Source of the DNA: Octopus vulgaris
Lineage: Eukaryota
Length of the DNA stretch: 64,000 nt
Assembly (NCBI GenBank): GCA_951406725.2
Contig: OX597816.1
Location: 51,956,001 to 52,020,000, forward strand
Direction: 5' to 3'
The notes below the pieces were generated by a model that saw only the letters and a list, made by a program, of their open reading frames with translations, made no database searches and was not told the origin of the DNA. The first letter of the stretch is position 1. Each line of letters begins with the position of its first letter. Positions 1,422-56,882 of the stretch are shown here, piece by piece. The position numbers and the translations under genes were made by a program.

Positions 1422-1727
1422 ATATATATATATATATAATTTCAACAATTGAGGGTAAAATTAATTAATTATTAATCAATTTCACCAAGTGTTCAGTATG
1501 CAAAGGGACCATTTAAGGCGAATTCAAATTATTACATTATATAAAAGGGCTTAGTAAAATAAATTACTTTGCCGCATACTGAACTCATTAGAAATAGCAG
1601 CTAAAAAACTTTTTTTAAAGCTATTTCTAATACTTAAAGAAAATCTCTCTCATATATAGTGTTTGCTTAATTCAACTCACAAAAGTTTGGGGGTAAGGAC
1701 ATCAAAAAATCAAATGCTAAGGTTATT

Positions 1728-1779
1728 TGAGAACGTACGTTTCAAGATTAGTCATAACAACACTTCTATCATCAGCTCA
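1728..1779 (-). ncRNA. Minimal type-I hammerhead ribozyme (545-bp family)
   Basis: Minus strand: UGAG-CUGAUGA-stem II-GAAA-CGUACG-UU-CUCA; canonical core, palindromic stem III. Confidence 0.75.
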
Positions 1780-2128
1780 GAAACTCCTTGGTTTGGATTT
1801 GGAAACACTGAAAGTAAGAACATACCCTTTCGAAGATCCGCTCGTAACTAACAGTGCCAACAAACCCAAATAAGCAAGCGAAGAATTTCTGTTCTCCCCT
1901 TTCCACCAGCGTGGGTTAAAATCATCAAACACTATGCTTATTTCGGTAAAATCCGAAGCATTAATTAGAGGGAGATTAATTATAATTTCAACAATTGAGG
2001 GTAAAATTAATTAATTATTAATCAATTTCACCAAGTGTTCAGTATGCAAAGGGACCATTTAAGGCGAATTCAAATTATTACATTATATAAAAGGGCTTAG
2101 TAAAATAAAATCCAAACCAAGGAGTTTC

Positions 2129-2180
2129 TGAGCTGATGATAGAAGTGTTGTTATGACTAATCTTGAAACGTACGTTCTCA
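2129..2180 (+). ncRNA. Minimal type-I hammerhead ribozyme (545-bp family)
   Basis: TGAG CTGATGA TAGAAGTGTTGTTATGACTAATCTT GAAA CGTACG TT CTCA. Confidence 0.75.
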
Positions 2181-2672
2181 AATAACCTTAGCATTTGATT
2201 TTTTGATGTCCTTACCCCCAAACTTTTGTGAGTTGAATTAAGCAAACACTATATATGAGAGAGATTTTCTTTAAGTATTAGAAATAGCTTTAAAAAAGTT
2301 TTTTAGCTGCTATTTCTAATGAGTTCAGTATGCGGCAAAGTAATTTATTTTACTAAGCCCTTTTATATAATGTAATAATTTGAATTCGCCTTAAATGGTC
2401 CCTTTGCATACTGAACACTTGGTGAAATTGATTAATAATTAATTAATTTTACCCTCAATTGTTGAAATTATAATTAATCTCCCTCTAATTAATGCTTCGG
2501 ATTTTACCGAAATAAGCATAGTGTTTGATGATTTTAACCCACGCTGGTGGAAAGGGAGAACAGAAATTCTTCGCTTGCTTATTTGGGTTTGTTGGCACTG
2601 TTAGTTACGAGCGGATCTTCGAAAGGGTATGTTCTTACTTTCAGTGTTTCCAAATCCAAACCAAGGAGTTTC

Positions 2673-2724
2673 TGAGCTGATGATAGAAGTGTTGTTATGA
2701 CTAATCTTGAAACGTACGTTCTCA
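2673..2724 (+). ncRNA. Minimal type-I hammerhead ribozyme (545-bp family)
   Basis: Identical to 2129-2180, 544 nt downstream on the same strand. Confidence 0.75.
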
Positions 2725-2906
2725 AATAACCTTAGCATTTGATTTTTTGATGTCCTTACCCCAAACTTTTGTGAGTTGAATTAAGCAAACACTATATATG
2801 AGAGAGATTTTCTTTAAGTATTAGAAATAGCTTTAAAAAAGTTTTTTAGCTGCTATTTCTAATGAGTTCAGTATGCGGCAAAGTAATTTATTTTACTAAG
2901 CCCTTT

Positions 2907-2954
<48 letters not shown>

Positions 2955-4047: not shown

Positions 4048-4295
4048 CCGCAGGCATATGGCGTAGTGATTAAGAGCGCCGGCTACTAACCCCAAGATTC
4101 CGGGTTCGATTCCAAGCAGTGACCTGAACAATAATAATAATAATAATAACTTCGAAAAATGCCTTAAGAATGAGAACGCAGGTTTGAAATTTCCCCAAGA
4201 CACCTGAAGAAGGCTGGAGGGTATATCAGCCGAAACTTTGTGTTAACAACAAACAAAATGAGGACAAATATCCGTCGAATGTAAATAATTTAAAT
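4048..4295 (+). mobile_element. tRNA-derived SINE with a hammerhead-containing tail
   Basis: A box TGGCGTAGTG, B box GGTTCGATTCC, (AAT)n, then an HHR motif; 19-bp TSD AATTGTTTTACACT(T/C)CTTT at 4029-4047 and 4296-4314. Confidence 0.85.
4199..4244 (+). ncRNA. Minimal hammerhead motif in SINE tail
   Basis: GACAC CTGAAGA A GGCTG-loop-CAGCC GAAA CTTT GTGTT (the 18.6 kb copy reads GAAACGTT). Confidence 0.65.
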
Positions 4296-5557
4296 AATTG
4301 TTTTACACTCCTTTATAACTGATTCCGGAGATGGGAAGACCGCTCTCTTAATTCCGTTTCTTTGCCACATCTTTGTAATCCGAGTTGCATTCCCACTTCT
4401 TCTCATTAGTATTCAAGTCTAAGCCCCACCTAAGTCTTATTAGCCTTTCATCGTTTCGGGAATCGATAAAATAAAATATTAGGCAAGCACTGGCGTCAAT
4501 AGTATCGACTCCTTGTTCCGCATCTCCCACAAATTGTTGACCTTCTGCCTGTTTTAGGAAACAATACCTACCTTCTTCGATTTTTATCCGTTTTCTTCAC
4601 GCATACTACATACTGCGTGTGTGAAGGACAAAAAAAAAACGAGAATGCAAGAAAGTAGATGACAATGGAAGTTCATTAACAAAGTTATCTAAATTAACTA
4701 ATTGAATTCTAAATTCTACAATGAAATACTAATCTTCGTTTTACATTATTTTTGTCTTTTATTTTGAAGACGTCTTTGGTGTCATAACATCATACGTGAC
4801 GTATCGCTACTTGAATGAAATAACCATTTTCTTTCAAATTATAATAATAGTGTTGGCAATATTCATGCATGACGTATTTGCTGCTCGATGAGACCTACTA
4901 ATCTACCATCTGTAATTTAGCAAGTCGACATTAACTTATTCACGCTACATATCTCCAATTTGATTCGGCAATTGTAATGACCAAATCAATTACACAAATA
5001 GTAATCTTTGATAAAAGTCAAGGGCGCGCAATCAAGAACAAAGAAGCTTAAAGCAGCATTTCATTCACATATACTTAGAGGCAAATCAGATCTAATCAGT
5101 CACTTTTATTGTAACAGGCAGGTCAAAAGAAGAAAGAAGAGAGGTTCAGCGCATGATATTAGCTTATCATTATGCGTTTGTCTATTATATACTATTAAGT
5201 TATTCTTAAGACTTGTAATCGCATTACGAAAACCATGTCTCTCTCACCTCTTGCTCCTGTGAAAATAATGCGCACTTTATGATTGCTTTCTGACACCGGA
5301 GAGTTTACACATCTTCCACAATTTGATTGATAACCTAGCTTCTTTCATAATGTTGCTTAATGTTTCTATGATAAATGTATACGAAAGTATGTGGAGAACA
5401 GGGCAATTGGATTGCAAAGCTGGCTCATCCTTATGATAATACATGGGGCTCTTATGATACTCTCTTGAACTTCAAACTTAGAAAATTATAATGCAGGAAA
5501 TTTAAAGACATCATAACTAACAAATCTTCATTCCCACCCTCTGACTCCTTTAACTAT

Positions 5558-5792: not shown

Positions 5793-6202
5793 TGTAGGAG
5801 TGGCTGTGTGGTAAGTAGCTTGCTTACCAACGAATGGTTCCGGGTTCAGTCCCACTGCCTGGTACCTTGGGCAAGTGTCTTCTACTATAGCCTCGGGCCG
5901 ACCAAAGCCCTGTGAGTGGATCTGGTAGACGGAAACGGAAAGAAGCCCGCTGTATATATGTGTATATATGTATCTGTGTGTGTATGTTTGTGGGTTTGTG
6001 TTTGTCCCCCCAACAGCCCTTGGCAACCAATGTTGGTATGTTTACGTCCCCGTAACTTAGCGGTTCGGCAAAAAAGACCAATAGAATAAGTAGTAGGCTT
6101 ACAAAAAATAAGACCCGGGGTCGATTTGCTCGAATAAAGGCTGTGCTCCTGCATGGCCACAGTCAAATGATTGAAACAAGTAACAGAGTAAAAGAGTAAA
6201 AG
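5791..6202 (+). mobile_element. tRNA-derived SINE family A (CORE-like), full length
   Basis: Head GGAGTGGCTGTGTGGTAAG..GGTTCAGTCCC, CORE-like ACCTTGGGCAAGTG, internal TA/TG tract, tail TGAAACAAGTAA; many copies in the window. Confidence 0.85.
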
Positions 6203-6204
6203 AA

Positions 6205-6450
6205 TATTGTTTTATTGTTTTATTTGTTTCAGTCATATGACTGCGCCCATGCTGGAGCACCGCCTTTAGTCAAGCAAATCGACCACATGTCTTAGTACTC
6301 AGTTCAAATCGACCACAGGACCTACTACTTATTCTATCGGTTTCTTTTGCCGAACAACTAAGATACGGGAACGTAAACACACCAGTATCTGTTGTCAAGC
6401 GATGCTGGTTGACAAACCCAGACACACAAACATGTACTCACACACAAAGA
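6205..6450 (-). mobile_element. SINE family A, 3' half, tail-to-tail with the previous copy
   Basis: Reverse-complement match to the family A tail. Confidence 0.8.
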
Positions 6451-6501
<51 letters not shown>

Positions 6502-7541: not shown

Positions 7542-8126
7542 CTTAAGGCGGCGAGCTGGCAGAATCGTTAGCACGCCGGGCGAAATGCGTAGCCGTATTT
7601 CGTCTGCCGTTACGCTCTGAGTTCAAATTCCGCCGAGGTCGACTTTGCCTTTCATCCTCTCGGGGGTCGATAAATTAAGTACCAGTTACGCACTGGAGTC
7701 GATGTAATCGACTTAATCCGTTTGTCTGTCCTTGTTTGTCCCCTCTGTGTTTGGCCCATTGTTGGTAGTAAAGAAATAGGTATTTCGTTTGTCGCTACGT
7801 TCTGAGTTCAATTTCCGTCGAAGTCGACTTTGCCTTTCATCCTTTCTGGGTCGATAAATTAAGTACCAGTTACGCACTGGGGTCGATATAACCGACTTAA
7901 TCCGTTTGTCTGTCCTTGTTTGTCCTCTCTGTGTTTAGCCCCTTGTGGGTAGTAAAGAAATAGGTATTTCGTCTGTAGCTATGTTCTGAGTTCAATTTCC
8001 ACCGAAGTCGACTTTGCCTTTCATCGTTTCTGGGTCGATAAATTAAGTAACAGTTGCGTACAGGGTACGATCGAATCGACTGGCCCCCTCCCCGAAAATT
8101 TCGGGCTTTATGCCTAGAGTAGAAAA
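7542..8126 (+). mobile_element. tRNA-derived SINE family B with internal triplication (~185 bp unit)
   Basis: GGCGGCGAGCTGGCAGAATCGTTAG head; GCCTTTCATCCTTTCGGGGTCGATAAATTAAGTACC-like central domain three times; TSD TAATATATTCACTA at 7528-7541 and 8127-8140. Confidence 0.85.
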
Positions 8127-15037: not shown

Positions 15038-16383
15038 ATCCTTACATTCATACATACATAGCACACACACACACACGTGCTCACACACGTATACACACAC
15101 ATGTATATAGGTATGTATTCTGAGCTTAGTTGTATAACCGCCTTTTGCGCAGTAAAAGATTGCAACACAGTCACCAAAACAGGTAGCTATGCAACGCGAT
15201 AACATATGGTAATTTTTCAATATCTAGTCCATGGTATTGTATATCTGAGATCCGGCCTTATCCTAGTGTCCGCAAGAGGTTAAAAAACTAATAATTGGCT
15301 CTGTAAGGCATCAGGTCTTTTGATACAGGCCATATTACTGCATTTACTTACGAGCAATTTCATTTCTATAGAAGATATCACCGTGACTTGGCAATTTTTC
15401 CTCCCTTTTGGATACACTTTTTTGTTTTCTAATTGTAAGATACAAAATCGTAATTTAATAAATATCGAAAATTGGTTAAAAAGTATAGATATGACGTTTG
15501 TTGTGGCTCCGAGATGTGATATTACGATTTTGTTTCACAGCATTATAGTTCATGCATAGACCCACTTTAACTGTTCTCAGCATTTGTAATTGTATATTAA
15601 ATTGTTATATTATATTTTCAAAACATTATATTGATACAAATGTACTTATACAGTAATTTTAAATTTGATTAGTCTATTTATATTGCTGTGACTTGTTTTA
15701 AGACATTAACAAAATAATGTATTTTTTTTTAGCAACTGTATAAACCCAATTGCACTCAACATTATTGTGAACGCTTGTGCAGTTGAAACACTTGAGCAGC
15801 TATGTGCGTTCCCATGACGTGATACTTTGGTCAATGGCATCTTCAAATAAAATAAGAACTTTTTTGGTGAATGACCCCGCTTTTCCAATCTTCTTAATTT
15901 CCATGGTTTGTAAAATGTAATGCAATTAGCAATACGGTGAGTTCGTGATCTGAGATTAAGCTATTTTTACATTGTATTGTTTTGTATTAGATTGATACTA
16001 GTGTCACGAGGCCGTGATGTTAGCTTCAGCTGCTATTCTTCATATCACTGTAGTATAAGAACAGAAGTAGGGAACCTGCGGCCTTCTGAAAGAAATGCGT
16101 TGAGGAGAAAACAATTGTACTGAAATTTATTTTCATTGGTTTAATTACGTTTATAGTGAAACTTTCCAACTAATTGTTAACTTCAAAAATATACATTTAT
16201 ATTTTTATTCACACTTGTAATTACTGAGCGAAGACAGAATGCATGTTCTTGTTTTGTCGATGGTAATGTTACCAAACTTCATGTTAACTTCTCAATCAAA
16301 CTAACAAATGATCTCTTATGATGTATTTCACTCTTCCATCAAATTTTGATTTCAAAATGCAAAGATACCAGGCAGATAGTGTT

Positions 16384-16624
16384 TCTTATTTCTTTACTAC
16401 TCACAAGAGGCTACACTCAGGGGGGGACAAACAAGAACAAACAAACGAATTAAGTCGATTATATTAACCTCAATGCGTAATTGGAACTTATTTAATCGAC
16501 CCCGAAAGGATGAAAGACAAAGTCGACCTCGGCGTAATTTGAACTCAGAACGTAGCAGCAGACGAAATACCGCTCAGCATTTCGCCCGGTGTGCTAACGT
16601 TTCTGCCAGCTCGCCGCCAATACA
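16384..16624 (-). mobile_element. SINE family B, monomer
   Basis: Full head-to-tail match; TSD CAGATAGTGTT at 16373-16383 and 16625-16635. Confidence 0.85.
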
Positions 16625-18514: not shown

Positions 18515-18690
18515 AGTTCTATATTTAAGAGATGAGGAATTATGTACATTACTTACATTATTGACATTCGACGAATATTTGTACTCATCTTGTTGTTAAG
18601 ACAACGTTTCGGCTGATATACCCTCCAGCCTTCTTCAGGTGTCTTGGGGAAATTTCGAACCTGGGTTCTCATTCCTAAGGTATTTTTTAA

Positions 18691-18763
<73 letters not shown>

Positions 18764-18923
18764 ACATCGAAAAATACTTTAGGAATGAGAACCTAGGTTC
18801 GAAATTTCCCCAAGACACCTGAAGAAGGCTGGAGGATATATCAGCCGAAACGCTGTGTTAACAACAAATAAGATGAGGAAAAATATCCGTCGAATGTAAA
18901 TAATGTAAATAATTTAAATAATG
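18515..18923. mobile_element. Inverted (hairpin) insertion of the HHR-SINE tail
   Basis: Minus arm 18515-18695 and plus arm ~18762-18923 around (GTT)n(ATT)n; HHR motifs at 18598-18645 (-) and 18814-18859 (+); TSD TATCTGAAATTAC at 18502-18514 and 18924-18936. Confidence 0.85.
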
Positions 18924-24934: not shown

Positions 24935-25345
24935 AAGGCGGCAAACTGGCAGAAACGTTAGCATGCCGGGCGAAATGCGTAGCCGTATTTCGCCTGAGGT
25001 TACGTTCTGAGTTCAAATTCTCCCGAGATCGTCTTTGCCTTTCATCCTTTCGGGGTCGATAGATTAAGTACCAGTTACGCATTGCGGTCGATATAATCGA
25101 CTTAATCCGCTTGTTTGTCCTTGTTTGTCCTCTCTGTGTTTAGCCCCTTGTGGGTAGTAAAGAAATAGAAATAGGTATTTCGTCTGCTGCTGCGTTCTGA
25201 ATTCAAATTCCGCCGAGATCGACTTTGCCTTTCATCCTTTCGGGGTCGATAAATTAAGTACCAGTTACGCATTGTAATCGACTTAATCCCTTTGTCTGTC
25301 CTTGTCCCCTCTGTTTAGACCCTTGTGGGCAATAAAGAAATAGGA
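24935..25345 (+). mobile_element. SINE family B with internal duplication
   Basis: Head plus two copies of the body, joined at GAAATAG/GTATTTCG. Confidence 0.85.
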
Positions 25346-26036: not shown

Positions 26037-26101
<65 letters not shown>

Positions 26102-26238
26102 TCAATAAATGGTGGGGTTGTGTTGACCGCACGTGGAGAAATGATAAGTAAGGAAAATTTTTTTTTTAAATGCAGAATGCTCAAATGAAAGAAAATTTTA
26201 ATAAAATGAGAAATTGATAAAATATATAAATATATATT

Positions 26239-26279
26239 TATTCAACCGGTTTTCGTCATTGTATGACTTGTCAAGAATA
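26239..26279 (-). ncRNA. Variant minimal hammerhead in the 3' pLTR (U3-A8 core)
   Basis: UAUUC UUGACAA GUCAU-ACA-AUGAC GAAAA CCGG UU GAAUA. Confidence 0.55.
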
Positions 26280-26907
26280 TTTATGTTTTAAAAAGTTTTT
26301 TTAAAAATTAGAAAGGGGAAAAAAAGAAAATTGCATTGTTTTTTGTAAAAGAATAATGATAAAAATGTACAAAAATTAAAAAATAAGTTCTCCGATACAT
26401 TGTGAGTTCGTTGTGTATCTTGAGTTTTATAGTTGTTTACGAAAAAATTACCTTGAGGTGTTAAGATCCAAAGGGATTAAGAGCATGTGTTGTGTTGTTA
26501 AATTCAGCATGTTTGCAGGACAGGAAGTAGTAGTAATTGTGGTCCTGGTTCTTCAGTTCCTGTGTTGTGAGTAAGGGGAGACAACTCTTTTGAGTTCTTC
26601 AATAAAACCCAAATTATAAAATTAATATTTTAGCTTCATTTGTGTTATCTTTTTTATATAATTGCTTGTTAACTTAACTTTCAGATTTTAACACTTTATT
26701 TATATTATTTTCTAATTATATAAATCTGCATAGACAATTGCATTTCAAATTGTCATATCATTTATAATAAAAATGATAGTAATAACAACAATAGTAAAAA
26801 TGATACTTAAAGAATATAAGTTTTAGCTTGAAGTGATGAATGCATGGTATCTTTATATATTTGTGTTAGTCCATCCATGAAGAGTGAGGTAGAGAAAGGA
26901 AGTTTGA

Positions 26908-27312
26908 TCAACGAGGAGTTTGCATATTAAGTTGTGTTTGGAATTTTTCAATAAAGAGATTCTCCTTGTTAATTCTCTCCTGTGTGGTGATCCCGTCTTT
27001 ACATTGGTAGAAGGGGAATATATAGAATTTGGGGTTTAAGTCTTTAGCACATGAGTCTAAGTGGTCACTCAGTGGAATTTGTCGGTATTCCGGGAGATTT
27101 ATTTGTTCTTTATGCACCGTTACTCGTTTACGTAACGGGAGACTCGTTTGTCCAACATAATTATGTTGGCAACCAGCGCATGTGAGAACGTAGATAAGGT
27201 TCTCGGAGGAACAGGAGAAGTTAGTCTTGATTTTAAACTTCGTACCTTGTTTGAAGGTAAATTCAGAGCCTTCAAGTAGAAAGGGGCAGGTACCACAGTT
27301 TGAGCGTTCACC
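26908..27312 (-). pseudogene. PLE GIY-YIG endonuclease domain
   Basis: Manual translation: ERSNCGTCPFLLEG..CSSENLIYVLTCAGCQHNYVGQTSLPLRKRVTVHKEQI..HL..RINKENLFI..LN; one-base frameshift from the RT ORF near 27313. Confidence 0.9.
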
Positions 27313-28108
27313 TTTTTCCTACTGTTGGGGGTGGATGTGGTGTGTGAAGTTTGGCATTTGTCAAGAGTTTTTTTAAAGATTTGTGTTGCCTTTTGCATTT
27401 GAGGATTTTGTGTGTATTTATAATGTTTTTCATTTTTGGGTCTGTTGACAGTAGACTGAGGTTTTGTATGATTGTGGTGTATGCTTCGATATTTTTGGGG
27501 TTGTGGGTGGAAATGTATGGAAGTATTTTGAGGTTGTGTGTGGTGTTAGGTTGGGTGGTTTTCAGTGTAGTGTTGTCTAGTTCTTTGGCGCGTTTTATTC
27601 CATACTCTATAAGGGTGGAGAGATATTGACGTTGTAATAGTGTTTTTTTGAGGTCTTGAAGGCGTATTTCTCGTGTTTTTGGATCCGAGACAATGGTGCA
27701 TACCCTTTTAGCTAAATTGAAAGGGATATTTGTCTTGGTGTGTTTTGGGTGGCATGAACTAAAGAGGAGGTATTGTTGTGAGTCTGTAGGTTTGTGGTAG
27801 ATGTCTGTTATGATTTCGTTCTTAGGTGTTTTTATAATTAGGAGATCAAGGAATGGGAGATGATGTTTGCTTAATTCCATAGTGAATTGGATGTTGGGAT
27901 GTATGTTGTTTAGTATGGTTTTGAATTCCAGGAGTTTTTCATAAGGTTCTTTCCATATGATGAAACAATCATCTAAATACCTTTTCCAGTTTTCAATTAG
28001 GTAGGTGTGGAAAACATGTCCAAATTTCTGGCTTGATATTTCATAGAGTGACAGTTCGAAGTAACCCATTATGAGGTTCGCAAGGACTGGTGCAGCCTTG
28101 GTACCCAT
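27308..28108 (-). pseudogene. PLE reverse transcriptase, C-terminal part
   Basis: MGT..AP..ANL.M, WKRYLDD, LPFLD, YHKPTD, SCHP motifs. Confidence 0.93.
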
Positions 28109-29217
28109 CGCAATGCCACATTTTTGACGGTAGTGTGTGTCGTCGAAGAGAAAAAATTGTTTGTCAGAATGAACTTGAGAGATTCTGTAATAAAAGACTT
28201 GTTAATGCGGTCAGGGAATGTCTCTGGGTGTTTTTCTAGCCAGAAGTCAATTGCCTCTATACCATACTCATGTGGAATGTTGGTGTAGAGGTTGATGACA
28301 TCAAAGGATACCAGGAGTGCCTCCTCGTTAACTGTTTTCGGGAGGTGTTTGAGCATGTCCAGATCATCCCTAATGAAACTTTTGATGTGGGTAAGGAAAG
28401 GTTTCAAAAGGATGTCTAGGAAGTTACTCAGGCGGTGTGTTTCACAGGAGGTACCAGCCACGATGGGCCTTAGTTTTAGGTCCTCTGGTGCTTTGATGTT
28501 GATGTGGATGTCAGTGGAGAGTTTGCAGGCTTCGGTGATGTATTTGTTTTTATGGATTTTAGGAAGGCCATAAAAAAGGCTGGGCTTGCATTTGAAAATG
28601 GTGATATAATCCCTTTCTTTTTCTGTGAGTCCCTGACCGTGTTGGCGTATGAGTGTGGTAAGGTTTCTGATTGTTTTTTGCTGTTTGTAGTTGTTAATAA
28701 CCTCATAGAAAATGTTATTGTTAAGCATGGAAAACACTAGGTGTTTATAAAATTCCGTGTCCATAAGGACCACAGCACTCCCTTTGTCCGCTTCTTTGAT
28801 GGTGAGGTTTTTATCCAGTTGTATGTCACGTAGGTTTTCCCATTCTTCCTTACTGAAATTGGATTTTACCTTGGTTTTGCTTGGGGTAAAGGGGAGACTC
28901 TGGATGTGTTTGCAGAAATCGTCCAGTGTTTTATTTCTCCCTTTTGGTGGTAGGAAGTTGCTTTTATTTCTGATCAATGAATCGTCCCCATTGTTGATAT
29001 CTGTCAAAGCTTCTGTTAGGCGAAGTTTTCTGCAGAATTCAGAAACGTCATCCTTGACCTCCGGGGGGTTTGGTGTTCTTGGGGTGGGTGTGAATTTCAA
29101 ACCTCTTGCTAGGATGTTGATTTGGGTTGGTGTCAGTGTCTTGCTGGAGAGGTTTATAATTTTTGTTTTCTTATTTTGGGTCTGTGTTAGCGGTGGTGTT
29201 TGTATTTTCCCCTCTGT
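28069..29217 (-). pseudogene. PLE reverse transcriptase, N-terminal part
   Basis: IINLS..GLKFTPTP, ADKG, YGLPKIHK, LRPIV, SFDV.NLYTNIP motifs; frame open from 29217; frameshift near 28130. Confidence 0.93.
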
Positions 29218-29760
29218 CTAAAAAATGGTTGTTGAGGTAAGGGGTGTATTCTTTGTTAAAGTTCTGGTTGTATGTGTAGGAGTGTTTTTGGGTGGGGAGG
29301 TTGGAGGGGGGTAGGTAGTTGTCGTTTTTGTGTTGGTATGGGATGCGATGGTGTAAGGATTTGTGAGAAATGCGATGGGTTTGTGGGTGTGTGTCTGGTA
29401 GATTGTATGGGGGGATGTAGGGGGTATGTAGTTGTGGTGATTGGGTTCGTGTGGGATGTGAGGGTTTGGAGATCTGTAGGAGATGTGGTAGGAATGTGGT
29501 TGTAGGATGGGTGGACTATAGGGGGTTCGTTGGGTGGGTATTATATGTATCGGTGTGGGTAGGATGCCTTGTTTGTTATTAGTGTGAGGGAGGGGAGCCT
29601 TGAGGGGGGATAATTTCTAGTGTATGGGAGGTTCTTGAAGGTTCTAATCGGTGGGGGAGGGGTGTTAGAGTGATTGGAAAACCAGGTTTTGTGGTGGGTC
29701 TTGTTTGAGATGTTTCGGGGGGAAAAGGTTTTTTATATGGTTGGGGGAGGTTGTGTCCTG

Positions 29761-30675
29761 TTAGGAGGGGGTTTGGAGAGTATGTGTATTTGAGGTGCGG
29801 TTTGGAATGGTGTTTATGGGTGCAGTGGAAGTCTGTGTTGTGGGTACTTTTATGAATGGGTTTTGGGATTTATGGTTTAATATGAATTGTGTTTCATAGT
29901 TGAGGAAGAAATCTTTGTTGTTTTCCCAGCGTTTAAGGGAGGTTCGTTCTTCCTTTTCACATTCATCTTTCCATAGTTTAATAACAAGTTCGAGGGGCTG
30001 TTCGTTGGTGTGTGAGGTTAGTTCTAGAAGTATCTCATCGTCTATTTTTGTGTATTTTTGTTCGTGGTTTTGTGCTCTGAGTTTTAGAAGTTCTACTTCG
30101 GTTTTCATTTTTTCCAATGTTAGTTTTTCTCTTAGGGAGCGTTGTTTTTCAGGTTCGTCTGGGATGTGTTTGATTTGGAATTTTCGGGGTAGTATGATAG
30201 GGGAGGAGTTTAACCATTTGTCGTAAATTTCAGCTTCGTTTTGGTTTTTGAGCATGTTCCAGAAGAGAAGTTTTCTGTTGTGTAGTTTCTTAGTCCAAGT
30301 AGTGATGATCTGGTTTTTAATGCGTTGTGCTGGGGTTGAAGTGTGTTCCTTCTGTGTGTTGAGTGGTGTCTGAGGTCTCTTTGGCGTTGAATTGGTAAGT
30401 AGAGTTTTCAGTGTATTGTTGATTTCATTTAGGTTTACATCTATCTTATCCGAAAGTAGAGTTTTCAGTGTAGTGTTGATTTCGTTTAGGTTTACATCAA
30501 TTTTATCCGAAAGTTGTTGATGATGGTTGTTTTCTGAGTTGTCCCGGGATTGATGGAGAAGTTCGTCAATTTTTTTGGAGAATGTAAGTAGATGTGTATT
30601 GAGTACTTTGAGTTCTTTTAGAATGGTCTTATTGGTGACTGTCTCTGTAAGAGTGCTCTTGTTTTTCGGAGGCAT
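29761..30675 (-). CDS. Upstream ORF1 of the PLE (304 aa, predicted coiled-coil, function unknown)
   Basis: ATG 28 nt after the 5' pLTR; K/E/L-rich; duplicated LSDKIDVNLNEIN.TLKTL; followed by a frame-broken Pro/Thr-rich stretch to ~29220. Confidence 0.7.
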   Translation of the reverse strand: MPPKNKSTLTETVTNKTILKELKVLNTHLLTFSKKIDELLHQSRDNSENNHHQQLSDKIDVNLNEINTTLKTLLSDKIDVNLNEINNTLKTLLTNSTPKRPQTPLNTQKEHTSTPAQRIKNQIITTWTKKLHNRKLLFWNMLKNQNEAEIYDKWLNSSPIILPRKFQIKHIPDEPEKQRSLREKLTLEKMKTEVELLKLRAQNHEQKYTKIDDEILLELTSHTNEQPLELVIKLWKDECEKEERTSLKRWENNKDFFLNYETQFILNHKSQNPFIKVPTTQTSTAPINTIPNRTSNTHTLQTPS

Positions 30676-30843
30676 TCTGAATCACACGTGTGGTAGAGGG
30701 TACAGATCAATAAATGTTGGGGTTGTGTTGACCGCACGTGGAGAAATGATAAGTAAGGAAAAATTTTTTTTTAAATGCAGAATGCTCAAATGAAAGAAAA
30801 TTTTAATAAAATGAGAAATTGATAAAATATATAAATATATATT

Positions 30844-30884
30844 TATTCAACCGGTTTTCGTCATTGTATGACTTGTCAAGAATA
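30844..30884 (-). ncRNA. Variant minimal hammerhead in the 5' pLTR (U3-A8 core)
   Basis: Identical to 26239-26279. Confidence 0.55.
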
Positions 30885-31014
30885 TTTATGTTTTAAAAAG
30901 TTTTTTTAAAAATTAGAAAGGGGAAAAAAGAAAATTGCATTGTTTTTTGTAAAAGAATAATGATAAAAATGTACAAAAATTAAAAAATAAGTTCTCCGAA
31001 AAATTTTTCCTTAC

Positions 31015-36601: not shown

Positions 36602-37816
<1,215 letters not shown>

Positions 37817-37819
<3 letters not shown>

Positions 37820-37890
37820 GCGGAGGCCTACCACACGCCGATGATAGGCAATACACCTTGAAACCATGGTCCGTGTGTGGTTTCCGCTTC
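37817..37890 (+). ncRNA. Type-I hammerhead, U4C variant, long stem I
   Basis: GAAGCGGA..CACACG CCGATGA TAGG-CAATACA-CCTT GAAA CCATGG TC CGTGTG..TCCGCTTC; GUC site at 37869-37871. Confidence 0.75.
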
Positions 37891-38175
37891 ATCGGGAAAT
37901 TACCTCCCTTTGCAGGTTTAGGGCACCGTGACGGTGTCGAGCCTTTCTGGTGACGTCGATGTTCGCCTGGGGCTAAATGCAACAGTAACACCCCCACCAC
38001 CCTGCCCTGTCCCTAGCCATATTCAGATGGCTTTAGTCCCTTATGTTATCGAGCAGTTACTGTCTATATCCCTTTTAGAGAATTATTATTGCTTTCGAAC
38101 AGATTCTCGAAATCAGCAAATGTATTTTGCTTGAAAATCTATATAAGAAATCCTGCACAGTGAGAATTCGTCGAG

Positions 38176-38249
38176 GAAGCGGAGGCCTACCACACGCCGA
38201 TGATAGGCAATACACCTTGAAACCATGGTCCGTGTGTGGTTTCCGCTTC
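38176..38249 (+). ncRNA. Type-I hammerhead, U4C variant (copy 2)
   Basis: Identical to copy 1. Confidence 0.75.
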
Positions 38250-38534
38250 ATCGGGGAATTACCTCCCTTTGCAGGTTTAGGGCACCGTGACGGTGTCGAG
38301 CCTTTCTGGTGACGTCGATGTTCGCCTGGGGCTAAATGCAACAGTAACACCCCCACCACCCTGCCCTGTCCCTAGCCATATTCAGATGGCTTTAGTCCCT
38401 TATGTTATCGAGCAGTTACTGTCTATATCCCTTTTAGAGAATTATTATTGCTTTCGAACAGATTTTCGAAATCAGCAAATGTATTTTGCTTGAAAATCTA
38501 TATAAGAAATCCTGCACAGTGAGAATTCGTCGAG

Positions 38535-38608
38535 GAAGCGGAGGCCTACCACACGCCGATGATAGGCAATACACCTTGAAACCATGGTCCGTGTGTGGTT
38601 TCCGCTTC
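38535..38608 (+). ncRNA. Type-I hammerhead, U4C variant (copy 3)
   Basis: Identical to copy 1. Confidence 0.75.
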
Positions 38609-38809
38609 ATCGGGGAATTACCTCCCTTTGCAGGTTTAGGGCACCGTGACGGTGTCGAGCCTTTCTGGTGACGTCGATGTTCGCCTGGGGCTAAATGCAA
38701 CAGTAACACCCCCACCACCCTGCCCTGTCCCTAGCCATATTCAGATGGCTTTAGTCCCTTATGTTATCGAGCAGTTACTGTCTATATCCCTTTTAGAGAA
38801 TTATTATTG

Positions 38810-38846
<37 letters not shown>

Positions 38847-38850
<4 letters not shown>

Positions 38851-39068
38851 TACATACATATACATACGTACATACATAAATGCATACATACACACATAGA
38901 TACATATATACCAAAAATAACTCTGCCGGAATGTGAGTAAAGGAAATCTTTTCAATAAAAAATATGCTTATGTCAAGGACTAATCTGTTAGAAGTTGCAC
39001 TTCACTGTATATATAATTACGTCCATTTGTCCAATTCAGGAGCAGCAGCAGCAGCAGCAGCAGGAGTT

Positions 39069-39107
<39 letters not shown>

Positions 39108-39750
39108 ATAGTAGTAGTAGTAGTACCACGCTGATTTCACATGAGAACTACATAACTACGAGTACATACACGCTGTTTCAATGAACGTGATAGCTAAGTG
39201 TTCAAACAGCCAAAAATTAGTCTTTACAGTTATTTTATACTTTTGATACCCAATTCATTGTTCTTCCGGTGAACTGATTCCTGTCCTCCCGAAGGACGTA
39301 CATTAACACTGACTGATGTATTAGAATTCACGATTCTAATACATCTGACAAAAGTTTGAAAACCTCACTGCTAATTTAAAATTGGATTGTTTAAACTTTT
39401 ATTTACTTCACTAAAAACTATTACATAATTTCTCCTCAGAATAGAAATACAAGTAAAATGCTAAAAAAATAACGAATGCTGTTAAAATGGTTTCTGACTT
39501 TGGCACGAGGCCAGCAATATCAAGAACAAGAACTTAGTCGGTATCCTCGAATCCATTTCTTTGCTGGTACGTAGTTATCCATCCCTGAGAGACTGAAAGA
39601 AAAGTTGGCTCTGGCAGGATTAAACTCAGAACCTAAAGATCTATGAATGCTCCTAAAATGCTGCTAAAATGAGCAATCATTTCTTTATGTCTGAATGTAT
39701 TTATAGGTATTTTCTGACTTTGACGTACAAATAGCGGGTTATTTGCTGAA
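38847..39750. repeat. Direct duplication, copy 2
   Basis: Near-identical to 36898-37819, with small indels and a different (GTA)n length. Confidence 0.95.
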
Positions 39751-54572: not shown

Positions 54573-56278
54573 TATATAGTGATGTTTGTGCTAATAGCAG
54601 TACTTTGAATGATTGTCTCTTTGATGGTAATGATTACACCTGCACAGTTACCACCCATATCGATCGCAGTTTTCATAATGATGGCAATGAGGATAACAGT
54701 GATGAGAATAAGTCTGATTATGATAATGATGATGATGACGACCACCACAACAGTATCAAGCTGTTACTCCCCATCCCTTGAAACATCCTTGCGATGCCTG
54801 AGATATATAGGTAATAAGGTAAAAGTGACGATGTTGTTTTGTTCGTGCCCCCAGGATGTGGGTGAATGCGGAATTATTTTTCTGTCGGTGATGTTAGATG
54901 CTCGAAATGATGATAATAATATATATGATAATAGTAATTGCGTTAATGACGACCTAAAATGATAGTGAGTTGGTTAATGATGATAGTATTGATGGCGAGG
55001 AAGATAATACTTTACTGATATATTGTTTTCCTGTTCGTTTTTGCATGAATATTGTTCTACTGTTATCGGGAGAATGGCTGGGTTTGATGCCATACATAGT
55101 CACATAGACTATTCTTTCGTAAATAATAATGGAAAGATGGGGGGTAAAACTGTAATTGGGTAAAAGAAATAATTAATTATTAAGACAAGCAAGGCATTGT
55201 AAAAATTAAAATGTGTGGCATTTTGAATTTCTTTCTTTCTTTCTTCGAATTTATTTATGGGTTTTTTTTTATAATCTTTAAATATTTCAAGCCGTCGGAA
55301 AGAGATTGATCTCCTGGTGATTACTCTCTAGTGACTTCCTTTATTTGTTTGTCGGAACTATTTCACTTGCGTTGAACTGCTTATTCTTCGATAATCTCTA
55401 CTTCAAAGACTTCAAATTTTTTTCTCACATTAAGTACACGGTATTCTAGTTAAGTAGAGCGTGATACATAGGCGTAAACTAACTCCACTCTATTACATAC
55501 ATTATCGATTCCGCATGTATGAAAGAAGCAAAATTCAAAATCAGTATATACAGTGAGACAAATCCAAATATCTTTTTCTTATTTATTCTCCACCACCCTA
55601 TATTGCCCATATAGCTACTTGTTAAATCGCCGGACAGAATTTTTGCGGTTTATATTTAAGTTCTGTGTTCTGACTTCAAATTTTACCGATATTAACTATA
55701 CCATTTATCCTTTCGGAGTTGAGAAATAAAGTATTTATCGAAGGCAGAGGTGGAAATTCGTAGATCATTGGAATAGATGCCACGTCGTATTTAATTTGTG
55801 TCTTGTTTTTGTTCTGAGGACAACTCATTCATTAGCACTGATCTTATGCTGCATCGACCATCGTTTTTTGCTTGGACAACATTAACGACGTGGAGGAAAG
55901 AAACCTGCAAAATATGGAAAACTTTTTGTCTTCCATACAAAATACTTACCCAGAGTTGCATCTTACAGATGCAATGTTCCACATGTACAGTCAAGACCTT
56001 AAGAAACATACGGGTGGTCCAGGTTTATCTGAAGAATTGCTTGTGAAGAATTCATACACTTGTGACACTTCACTTTTGTACAATATACTGATAAAGATAC
56101 AATGAAATGCATTCATCATTTGGATAATGTGCTCCTATATTTGCATGAATGGAACATAATAATTAGTTAAACCTGGAATGCCTTTCATCATTAGTCTGCT
56201 CGTTCAACATTGACCTAGCGATAAACGATAACAAACAAATGAGTCGCACTAAAATAGCACATAATAAACAAGCTTATA

Positions 56279-56679
56279 TCTTTATATATAAAAGTCAGGT
56301 TGTGTGCTGTCTGTCTCCTACGATTTAGATTCCTGACTACTCCCACATTTTGTGGTGCAGTTTAACCAAAACCGGGTATCTTATAGTCGTGATTCATATC
56401 GAGCCCTTCTGTGTATTAGCGCGCGTCTACGATGAGTCTACGATTTTAAAAATAATTTACCATCAATTTTTCCCATTTTTAATGCATTTTTGGCATATAT
56501 AAGGGAAGTAACTCTCTAAAAATTAATTATTAAATCTCAGAACGTAAAAAGCTACAGTAACACCCCCCCCCACCTTTGTGGTTAGCCATATTGAGATGGC
56601 TATTATACTTTACATCTCTAAAAATGCTTATATAGTTATTTCCCTTACAAACCCAAGCAACGCCGGGCGATACTGTTAG
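56279..56679 (+). mobile_element. Non-autonomous Helitron
   Basis: 5' A|TCTTTATATATAAAAG; subterminal imperfect hairpin CCCAAGCAACGCCGGG; 3' TTAG|T (CTAG-like); inserted between A and T with no TSD. Confidence 0.75.
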
Positions 56680-56882
56680 TTAAAGAATAAAGCAGTTATA
56701 ACTTAGATATAATGCTTCAAATTTTGGAAGTGGCATGCCGTTGATGAACGAAGCGGCTTCTTAACTAGTATCTATTTTATCGACCACAAAATGATGAAAG
56801 GTAAATTCGATACCACTCTCTGATTCAGGCACAGATCGCAGCGGCATGTAACTAAAGAGCAGAAGGAAATATGTCCGATGCT

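Follow-up and report, generated by a model that had tools for sequence, protein, structure and literature searches.

Non-LTR retrozymes have been described as non-autonomous derivatives of Penelope-like elements, or PLEs (bioRxiv 10.64898/2026.07.22.740005). In mussels they form repeats of 350-390 bp, and the axolotl hammerhead HHR_Amex2 lies in 350-bp repeats (Cervera & de la Pena 2020, PMC7229834). The role of the hammerhead in such elements is debated. One model holds cleavage and circles to be necessary (PMC7229834, PMC4209133), the second of these sources proposing a hammerhead that acts as a dimer. In the work on an Anolis PLE protein (PMC11167929), by contrast, cleavage was dispensable in vitro: reverse transcription was initiated internally, and hammerhead mutants left insertion unaffected. 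Li et al. found cleavage in only one of nine predicted Xenopus retrozyme dimers. Neptune and Naiad PLEs are biased to microsatellites (PMC8557442), and microhomology junctions have been reported for rotifer PLEs (PMC3846280).

The window analyzed here, the whole stretch of 64 kb of Octopus vulgaris DNA, contains a tandem array at 37817-38811, for which TRF gave a period of 359, 2.8 copies and 99% matches. Only two differences separate the units, each of them a change in unit 1, and (TA)18 at 38811-38846 closes the array. An earlier sequence-only reading had proposed 2.8 near-identical units, an ending in (TA)n and a unit size fitting the animal non-LTR retrozymes, and all three were borne out.

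37817..38175, plus strand: unit 1, with two private changes at unit positions 81 and 290
38176..38534, plus strand: unit 2, full
38535..38811, plus strand: unit 3, partial (277 nt), stopping at the 3' junction into (TA)n, a junction common to sequencing run X13
38811..38846, strand not assigned: (TA)18 at the 3' junction, putative nick and priming site

The longest ATG frames of the unit are 35 aa (sense strand) and 58 aa, indicating that it is non-coding. With a length within 150-450 bp, a GC content of 47% (below 50%), no LTR and multiple copies, it has the sequence features of a non-LTR retrozyme. Folded as a circle, the unit has a predicted MFE of -112.9 kcal/mol (z -5.1 against 100 shuffles), and the part outside the hammerhead has a predicted z of -2.1. 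The reading preferred here, with slightly better than even confidence, is that the repeat is a non-LTR retrozyme with the U4C core change, copied into (TA)n by the RT/endonuclease of a PLE and carrying a ribozyme predicted to be slow. As such it is likely a small parasite of PLEs. It is called a likely retrozyme with a variant core because the strict core fails at position 4 and because cleavage and circles are predictions.

Each of the three units opens with a type I hammerhead motif. The core CCGAUGA (U4C) in place of CUGAUGA, the GAAA, the palindrome ACCAUGGU and the GUC site, all noted in the earlier reading, are present in 3/3 units. C3 lies at 37838, 38197 and 38556, and C17 of unit 2 at 38230.

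37817..37890, plus strand: type I hammerhead 1, core 37838-37844, C4 at 37839, predicted cut after 37871 (placed by shifting the unit 2 positions by 359)
38176..38249, plus strand: type I hammerhead 2, core 38197-38203, C4 at 38198, predicted cut after 38230
38535..38608, plus strand: type I hammerhead 3, core 38556-38562, C4 at 38557, predicted cut after 38589
38191-38196/38231-38236, plus strand: helix I of hammerhead 2
38204/38218, plus strand: U.U pair of hammerhead 2 (10.1:11.1, helix II base)
38208-38214, plus strand: loop 2 of hammerhead 2
38222-38229, plus strand: palindrome of hammerhead 2
C38190, U38237 and A38214, plus strand: tertiary-contact bases of hammerhead 2, by sequence match to the Schistosoma motif (PMC2632901)

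Compared with the hammerhead core consensus (C3 U4 G5 A6 N7 G8 A9/G12 A13 A14 A15.1/U16.1 H17), the units deviate at U4 only. Helix I has 6 bp, helix II has the U.U and 3 bp with a 7-nt loop, and helix III has 2 bp, or 8 bp as a dimer. The tertiary motif of the Schistosoma hammerhead consists of a loop 1 U, an extrahelical pyrimidine and the 3' A of loop 2 (PMC2632901), and judged by this match the loop 1-loop 2 contact bases of the 359-bp repeat appear intact. Stem I comprises 6 bp, a 3x1 internal loop and 12 bp, and about 12 further pairs lie inside the array beyond a mismatch. The earlier reading had proposed a long imperfect stem I of about 20 bp, with the array starting exactly at its base, and this start is not supported. 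Because the stem continues about 12 pairs past the mismatch, the array opens within the rod, where the 12-bp segment has its base, and GAA, being common to element and flank, leaves the start open to a shift of 3 nt.

A strict type I descriptor gave three matches in the window and none in 40 block-shuffled windows. The Rfam hammerhead models gave no match on the array at E<=1 or E<=10. They also gave no match on the motif of a 544-bp sister family with a canonical core, and because this hammerhead was missed as well, the Rfam test has little power here. The palindrome duplex between two 359-bp units is predicted to have 8 bp and -11.2 kcal/mol, and the monomer hammerhead fold is predicted to lie 7.4 kcal/mol above the MFE. 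A misfold specific to C4 was considered and rejected, as the probability of the hammerhead structure was alike for C4 (1.1e-6) and U4 (1.7e-6); in the predicted folding, C4 was paired more often than U4 (0.36 vs 0.01). U4C makes a CpG at 38198-38199, and the canonical core would be regained by deamination in the DNA or by a C-to-U change in the RNA. T at position 4 was below 3% in the runs compared, and the CpG o/e of the window is 0.84, so CpG is undepleted.

The sister family lies in the same window.

1435..2917, strand not assigned: sister tandem family with a 544-bp unit, CUGAUGA cores at +2133, +2677 and -1775, inverted head plus tandem, with (TA)n at each end

The 544-bp copies are 99% identical, and their 3' ends fall at two sites separated by 99 nt, each within (TA)n; the circular fold of the unit has a predicted z of -6.7. 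The hammerhead shares its plan with that of the 359-bp unit, with U.U at the helix II base and an 8-nt palindrome, but its U4 is canonical. Between the stems of the two families, 25 of 26 cells are paired and 7 of 13 pairs are changed on both sides, in an alignment of two sequences that was chosen after the motif was seen and in which 2 of the 13 pairs come from the dimer helix. This value was reached in 3 of 500 shuffles, and slid controls gave 0-1 such pairs. The stems thus covary across the families; a lack of covariation, named in the sequence-only reading as a refuting result, did not occur. Because the structure was read from those same two sequences, the covariation supports the fold but gives no probability. 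Since the sister has the canonical U4 on a covarying fold, U4 is likely the ancestral state and U4C derived in the 359 family.

Global alignment of the 359-bp and 544-bp units was uninformative, and a common 3'-end motif of the two families was rejected, with 261 of 1000 shuffles scoring equally. The best local match between them was a small hairpin.

38448..38478 (unit positions 273-303), plus strand: small bulged hairpin, candidate RT binding signal, starting at the 3' junction of the 359 family

A match as good was found in 2 of 200 shuffles, and the z values are -2.05, for the hairpin at 38448-38478, and -2.59. Its look-alike in the 544-bp unit follows the two 3' ends of that family at distances of 20 and 119 nt. 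RNAalifold on the hairpin common to both families gave five pairs only, and the hairpin is a weak candidate for an enzyme binding signal.

Other repeats were observed in the window. A third hammerhead repeat (4127-4298 and 18539-18922) is of the minimal type, with the core CUGAAGA at +4204, +18819 and -18638, the last two lying in opposite orientation on either side of (TGT)n(TTA)n. Inverted pairs of a common SINE-like repeat surround (AT)n at 923-1421 and 5953-6470, one of them adjoining the 544-bp insertion. A 184-bp tandem SINE-like repeat occurs in several copies (7545-8081, 16382-16618 and 24935-25345), and the copy at 7595 presumably resembles an octopus SINE.

A search of public runs with the 359-bp unit returned 24 runs from 8 studies under four organism labels, which may not be separate species; 20 of these runs hold over half of the unit words. 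Four of the 20 were compared on one rotated unit at 80% likeness, with differences counted from 3%, a contig comparison that drops rare variants and to which relatives below 80% identity are invisible. At position 4 (38198), which all four runs cover, no other letter reached 3% in any of them (1337, 2, 10 and 1 contigs). Run X2 alone has 1337 contigs on the unit, and for X7, X13 and X16, with single contigs of low depth, carry-over of host DNA into other samples is a possible source. Because no other base reached 3% in the four runs, C4 is the family consensus: U4C is the standard form of the 359 family, not damage to the window copy. C4 in 3/3 units agrees with the earlier claim that the change was in the template, and copies with U4, for which the sequence-only reading had proposed a survey, stayed below 3%.

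The head-to-tail joint of the units was present in all four runs, and X13 has one contig of exactly 359 nt. Two contigs of X13 end at 38093 (unit position 277), and a loose end of (AT)4 lies there, which is the 3' junction of the window; among the matches listed, this junction occurred in X13 and in none of the other three runs. At unit position 342, both full window units have C and the four runs have G or T, indicating that the window units descend from one template. All variants among the matches listed fall within unit positions 290-349, and outside this stretch the unit varies no more than the ribozyme does. With so uniform a family, selection on the hammerhead cannot be shown. Loose ends were also seen at 38145, 38249 and 38299-38322, where diverged relatives carry parts of the unit, such as the hammerhead with its end at 38249, or sequence beginning near 38300. 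The earlier proposal of a recent insertion from a rolling-circle-like cDNA stands as to recency (two changes in the 995-bp array; three substitutions and three indels between its flanks) and as to a single template (position 342), but an uncut multimer matches the data as well as a rolling circle does.

By analogy with known variants, cleavage in the 359 family is predicted to be slowed by U4C. A hammerhead with U4C was much slower in vitro yet sufficed for viroid infectivity (PMC3088659, citing its ref. 30). Two points count against a slow but active ribozyme. In pairwise mutagenesis, activity was low whenever the CUGA turn was changed, a C3-G8 swap excepted (PMC9901934), and the cleavage of only one in nine predicted Xenopus dimers (Li et al.) weighs in the same direction. 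Both points favor the alternative that fits nearly as well, namely that the same element, with the same Penelope-type mobilization, has had a dead hammerhead since U4C arose in its founder and was spread by uncut read-through multimers, with no circles. This alternative is a serious one, held at clearly less than even confidence. U4 is part of the CUGA turn, the U.U at 10.1:11.1 weakens helix II further, insertion by the Anolis PLE protein in vitro was unaffected by hammerhead mutants (PMC11167929), and neither array end maps to the cut site. Decay at other positions would not show yet because the family is so young. However, the core is otherwise intact, as are the palindrome and all three tertiary-contact bases, and viroid infectivity was supported by U4C (PMC3088659). 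The U.U at the helix II base is also found in an expressed axolotl retrozyme family (PMC7229834) and in the canonical-core 544-bp sister.

In this assembly, the one source for the arrangement, the array lies between two direct copies of about 950 bp of host DNA.

36862..37819, plus strand: left copy of the duplicated host flank, starting inside a (TA)48 tract at 36803-36898
38811..39750, plus strand: right copy of the duplicated host flank, at 98% identity to the left one, with 3 substitutions and gaps of 15, 2 and 1 nt
37817..37819, plus strand: GAA microhomology at the 5' junction, common to flank and element

The duplication could be an assembly artefact, two haplotypes having been joined via the TA tract, or it could predate the insertion. 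This question is independent of the state of the ribozyme, and we judge either origin unlikely. Both copies begin in (TA)n, three substitutions and three indels are also expected between two haplotypes, and no other direct duplication of host DNA in the window exceeds 250 bp at >95%. Against this, the left copy stops exactly at the 5' junction of the element, with the 3-nt microhomology, and the differences between the flank copies are of the same order as the two changes in the array. The window contains no N, and insertion-linked duplications of about 900 bp are known for Dualen LINEs (PMC9977147).

A PLE is also present in the window.

26096..31005, minus strand: frameshifted PLE with Neptune/Nematis-type linker, RT and GIY-YIG frames and 306-bp pLTRs

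Its pLTRs carry minimal U3-A8 hammerheads at 30879 and 26274. The element ends in (TA)n on either side and has a short inverted head, and an extra frame of 306 aa (29761-30681), without a Pfam match, lies upstream of the RT frames. Relatives of this PLE carry the same domains, the named ones being mostly from bivalves, and 73 of 120 among the matches listed have the CX2-6CXXC linker. Counting this PLE, with its RT and GIY-YIG, and the 544-bp family, two hammerhead-bearing insertions besides the array have inverted heads and (TA)n ends. The PLE shows that (TA)n-targeting enzymes of the PLE type have been active in this genome, which does not make the window PLE itself the partner of the 359-bp repeat. 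No significant common sequence was found between the 359-bp unit and this PLE, the one in the window. A common 3' end was rejected, as 225 of 500 and 188 of 1000 shuffles scored as well, and because the likeness is within the shuffle range the window PLE is not named as the partner. The element at 56277-56680, which we take to be Helitron-like from its end motifs, matches unit positions 159-216 over 58 bp at 78%, and capture in either direction is possible. Helitrons have a 5' TC and a 3' hairpin-CTRR. Read directly, the ends of the 359-bp array have neither.

A hammerhead of near-normal speed, in an otherwise ordinary retrozyme, would result if U4C were fully offset, either by a protein partner or by tertiary contacts together with dimer folding. 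The intact tertiary signature and the 8-bp dimer helix agree with this, Perreault et al. propose that tertiary contacts compensate core variants, and one PLE hammerhead was protein-assisted (PMC11167929). It is nevertheless quite improbable, as the only U4C case seen is cited as much slower in vitro (PMC3088659) and second mutations did not rescue mutants of the CUGA turn (PMC9901934). Least probable is spread at the DNA level, by satellite expansion or a Helitron-type rolling circle with the hammerhead as a relic, for although the 58-bp match to the Helitron-like element and the local satellite-like expansion discussed by Li et al. point that way, the array is a short one with both its limits in mid-unit, it has no Helitron ends and sits within a duplicated target, and its (TA)n 3' junction recurs in another run.

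For a PLE-mobilized retrozyme with a slow ribozyme, the following course is proposed. Arrays of the 359-bp unit would be transcribed as multimers, in which two hammerheads pair via the 8-nt palindrome and cut slowly after GUC, aided by the intact loop 1-loop 2 contact. Because cutting is slow, uncut multimers and some circles of 359 nt would coexist. A Neptune-type enzyme from elsewhere in the genome would nick (TA)n and start the cDNA at a fixed internal site, unit position 277, which is 222 nt downstream of the cut site. Since neither array end is at the cut site, the template would have been a circle or an uncut multimer, and reverse transcription would have continued for more than one unit on one template. 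The cDNA end may then have been joined to host DNA about 950 bp away via three shared bases, and fill-in would have duplicated the flank. U4C presumably arose in the founder of the 359 family, and it may have spread because mobilization does not need fast cleavage.

In the hammerhead literature searched, no genomic family fixed for U4C was found, with earlier U4C or mollusc cases being possible; the available parts of PMC3907566 and PMC2837043 contain no U4C case. That a young multi-copy retrozyme family has fixed a core change that cripples or throttles its hammerhead and yet spreads, beside a canonical sister, is put forward tentatively, as a possibility held at clearly less than even confidence. 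If true, the 359/544 pair would be a natural experiment on whether Penelope-driven mobilization needs cleavage and circles, and a U4C family beside a U4 family makes the debated role of the hammerhead testable. Slow cutting might alternatively be favored, as it would preserve multimeric templates. The kilobase-scale target duplication would be the footprint of the second-strand step, and the small hairpin just downstream of the 3' ends of both families could be an enzyme binding signal. Entire multi-copy families can escape screens that demand the strict CUGANGA core. Should the ribozyme be just slightly slower, the case would add a further retrozyme in a further animal.

The core change of the 359 family is the one known from a viroid variant (Ambros & Flores 1998, as cited in PMC3088659), which was slow in vitro and viable in vivo. 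There, U4C was found in one variant of an RNA replicon, whereas here it is the consensus of a genomic family with a type I, dimer-dependent fold. The target duplication resembles that of the LINE Dualen-4b in Chlamydomonas, where duplications with a median of 900 bp flank a non-LTR insertion (PMC9977147). Dualen-4b is an autonomous LINE with two endonucleases, while the present single case is non-autonomous and likely involves a GIY-YIG enzyme.

The 359-bp repeat shares with PLEs a type I hammerhead, a palindromic helix III and a partial-tandem insertion (PMC4209133; PMC11167929; PMC8557442), as well as a microhomology 5' junction (also PMC3846280) and, putatively, a fixed internal 3' end joined to a microsatellite target. 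It differs from them in having no ORF, in a hammerhead that is canonical in helix sizes and not minimal, and in the absence of an inverted head at the locus; in the comparison with the window PLE, no homology to its pLTR was found. Its tandem non-coding unit of 150-450 bp, with one type I hammerhead each, GC below 50% and a predicted self-paired circle, is that of the animal non-LTR retrozymes. The 2-bp helix III with a tetraloop and the U.U at the helix II base recall axolotl HHR_Amex2. By published description, the closest plan is that of HHR_Amex2 and the mussel repeats of 350-390 bp, from which the 359 family is set apart by its U4C consensus and by the target duplication of about 950 bp.
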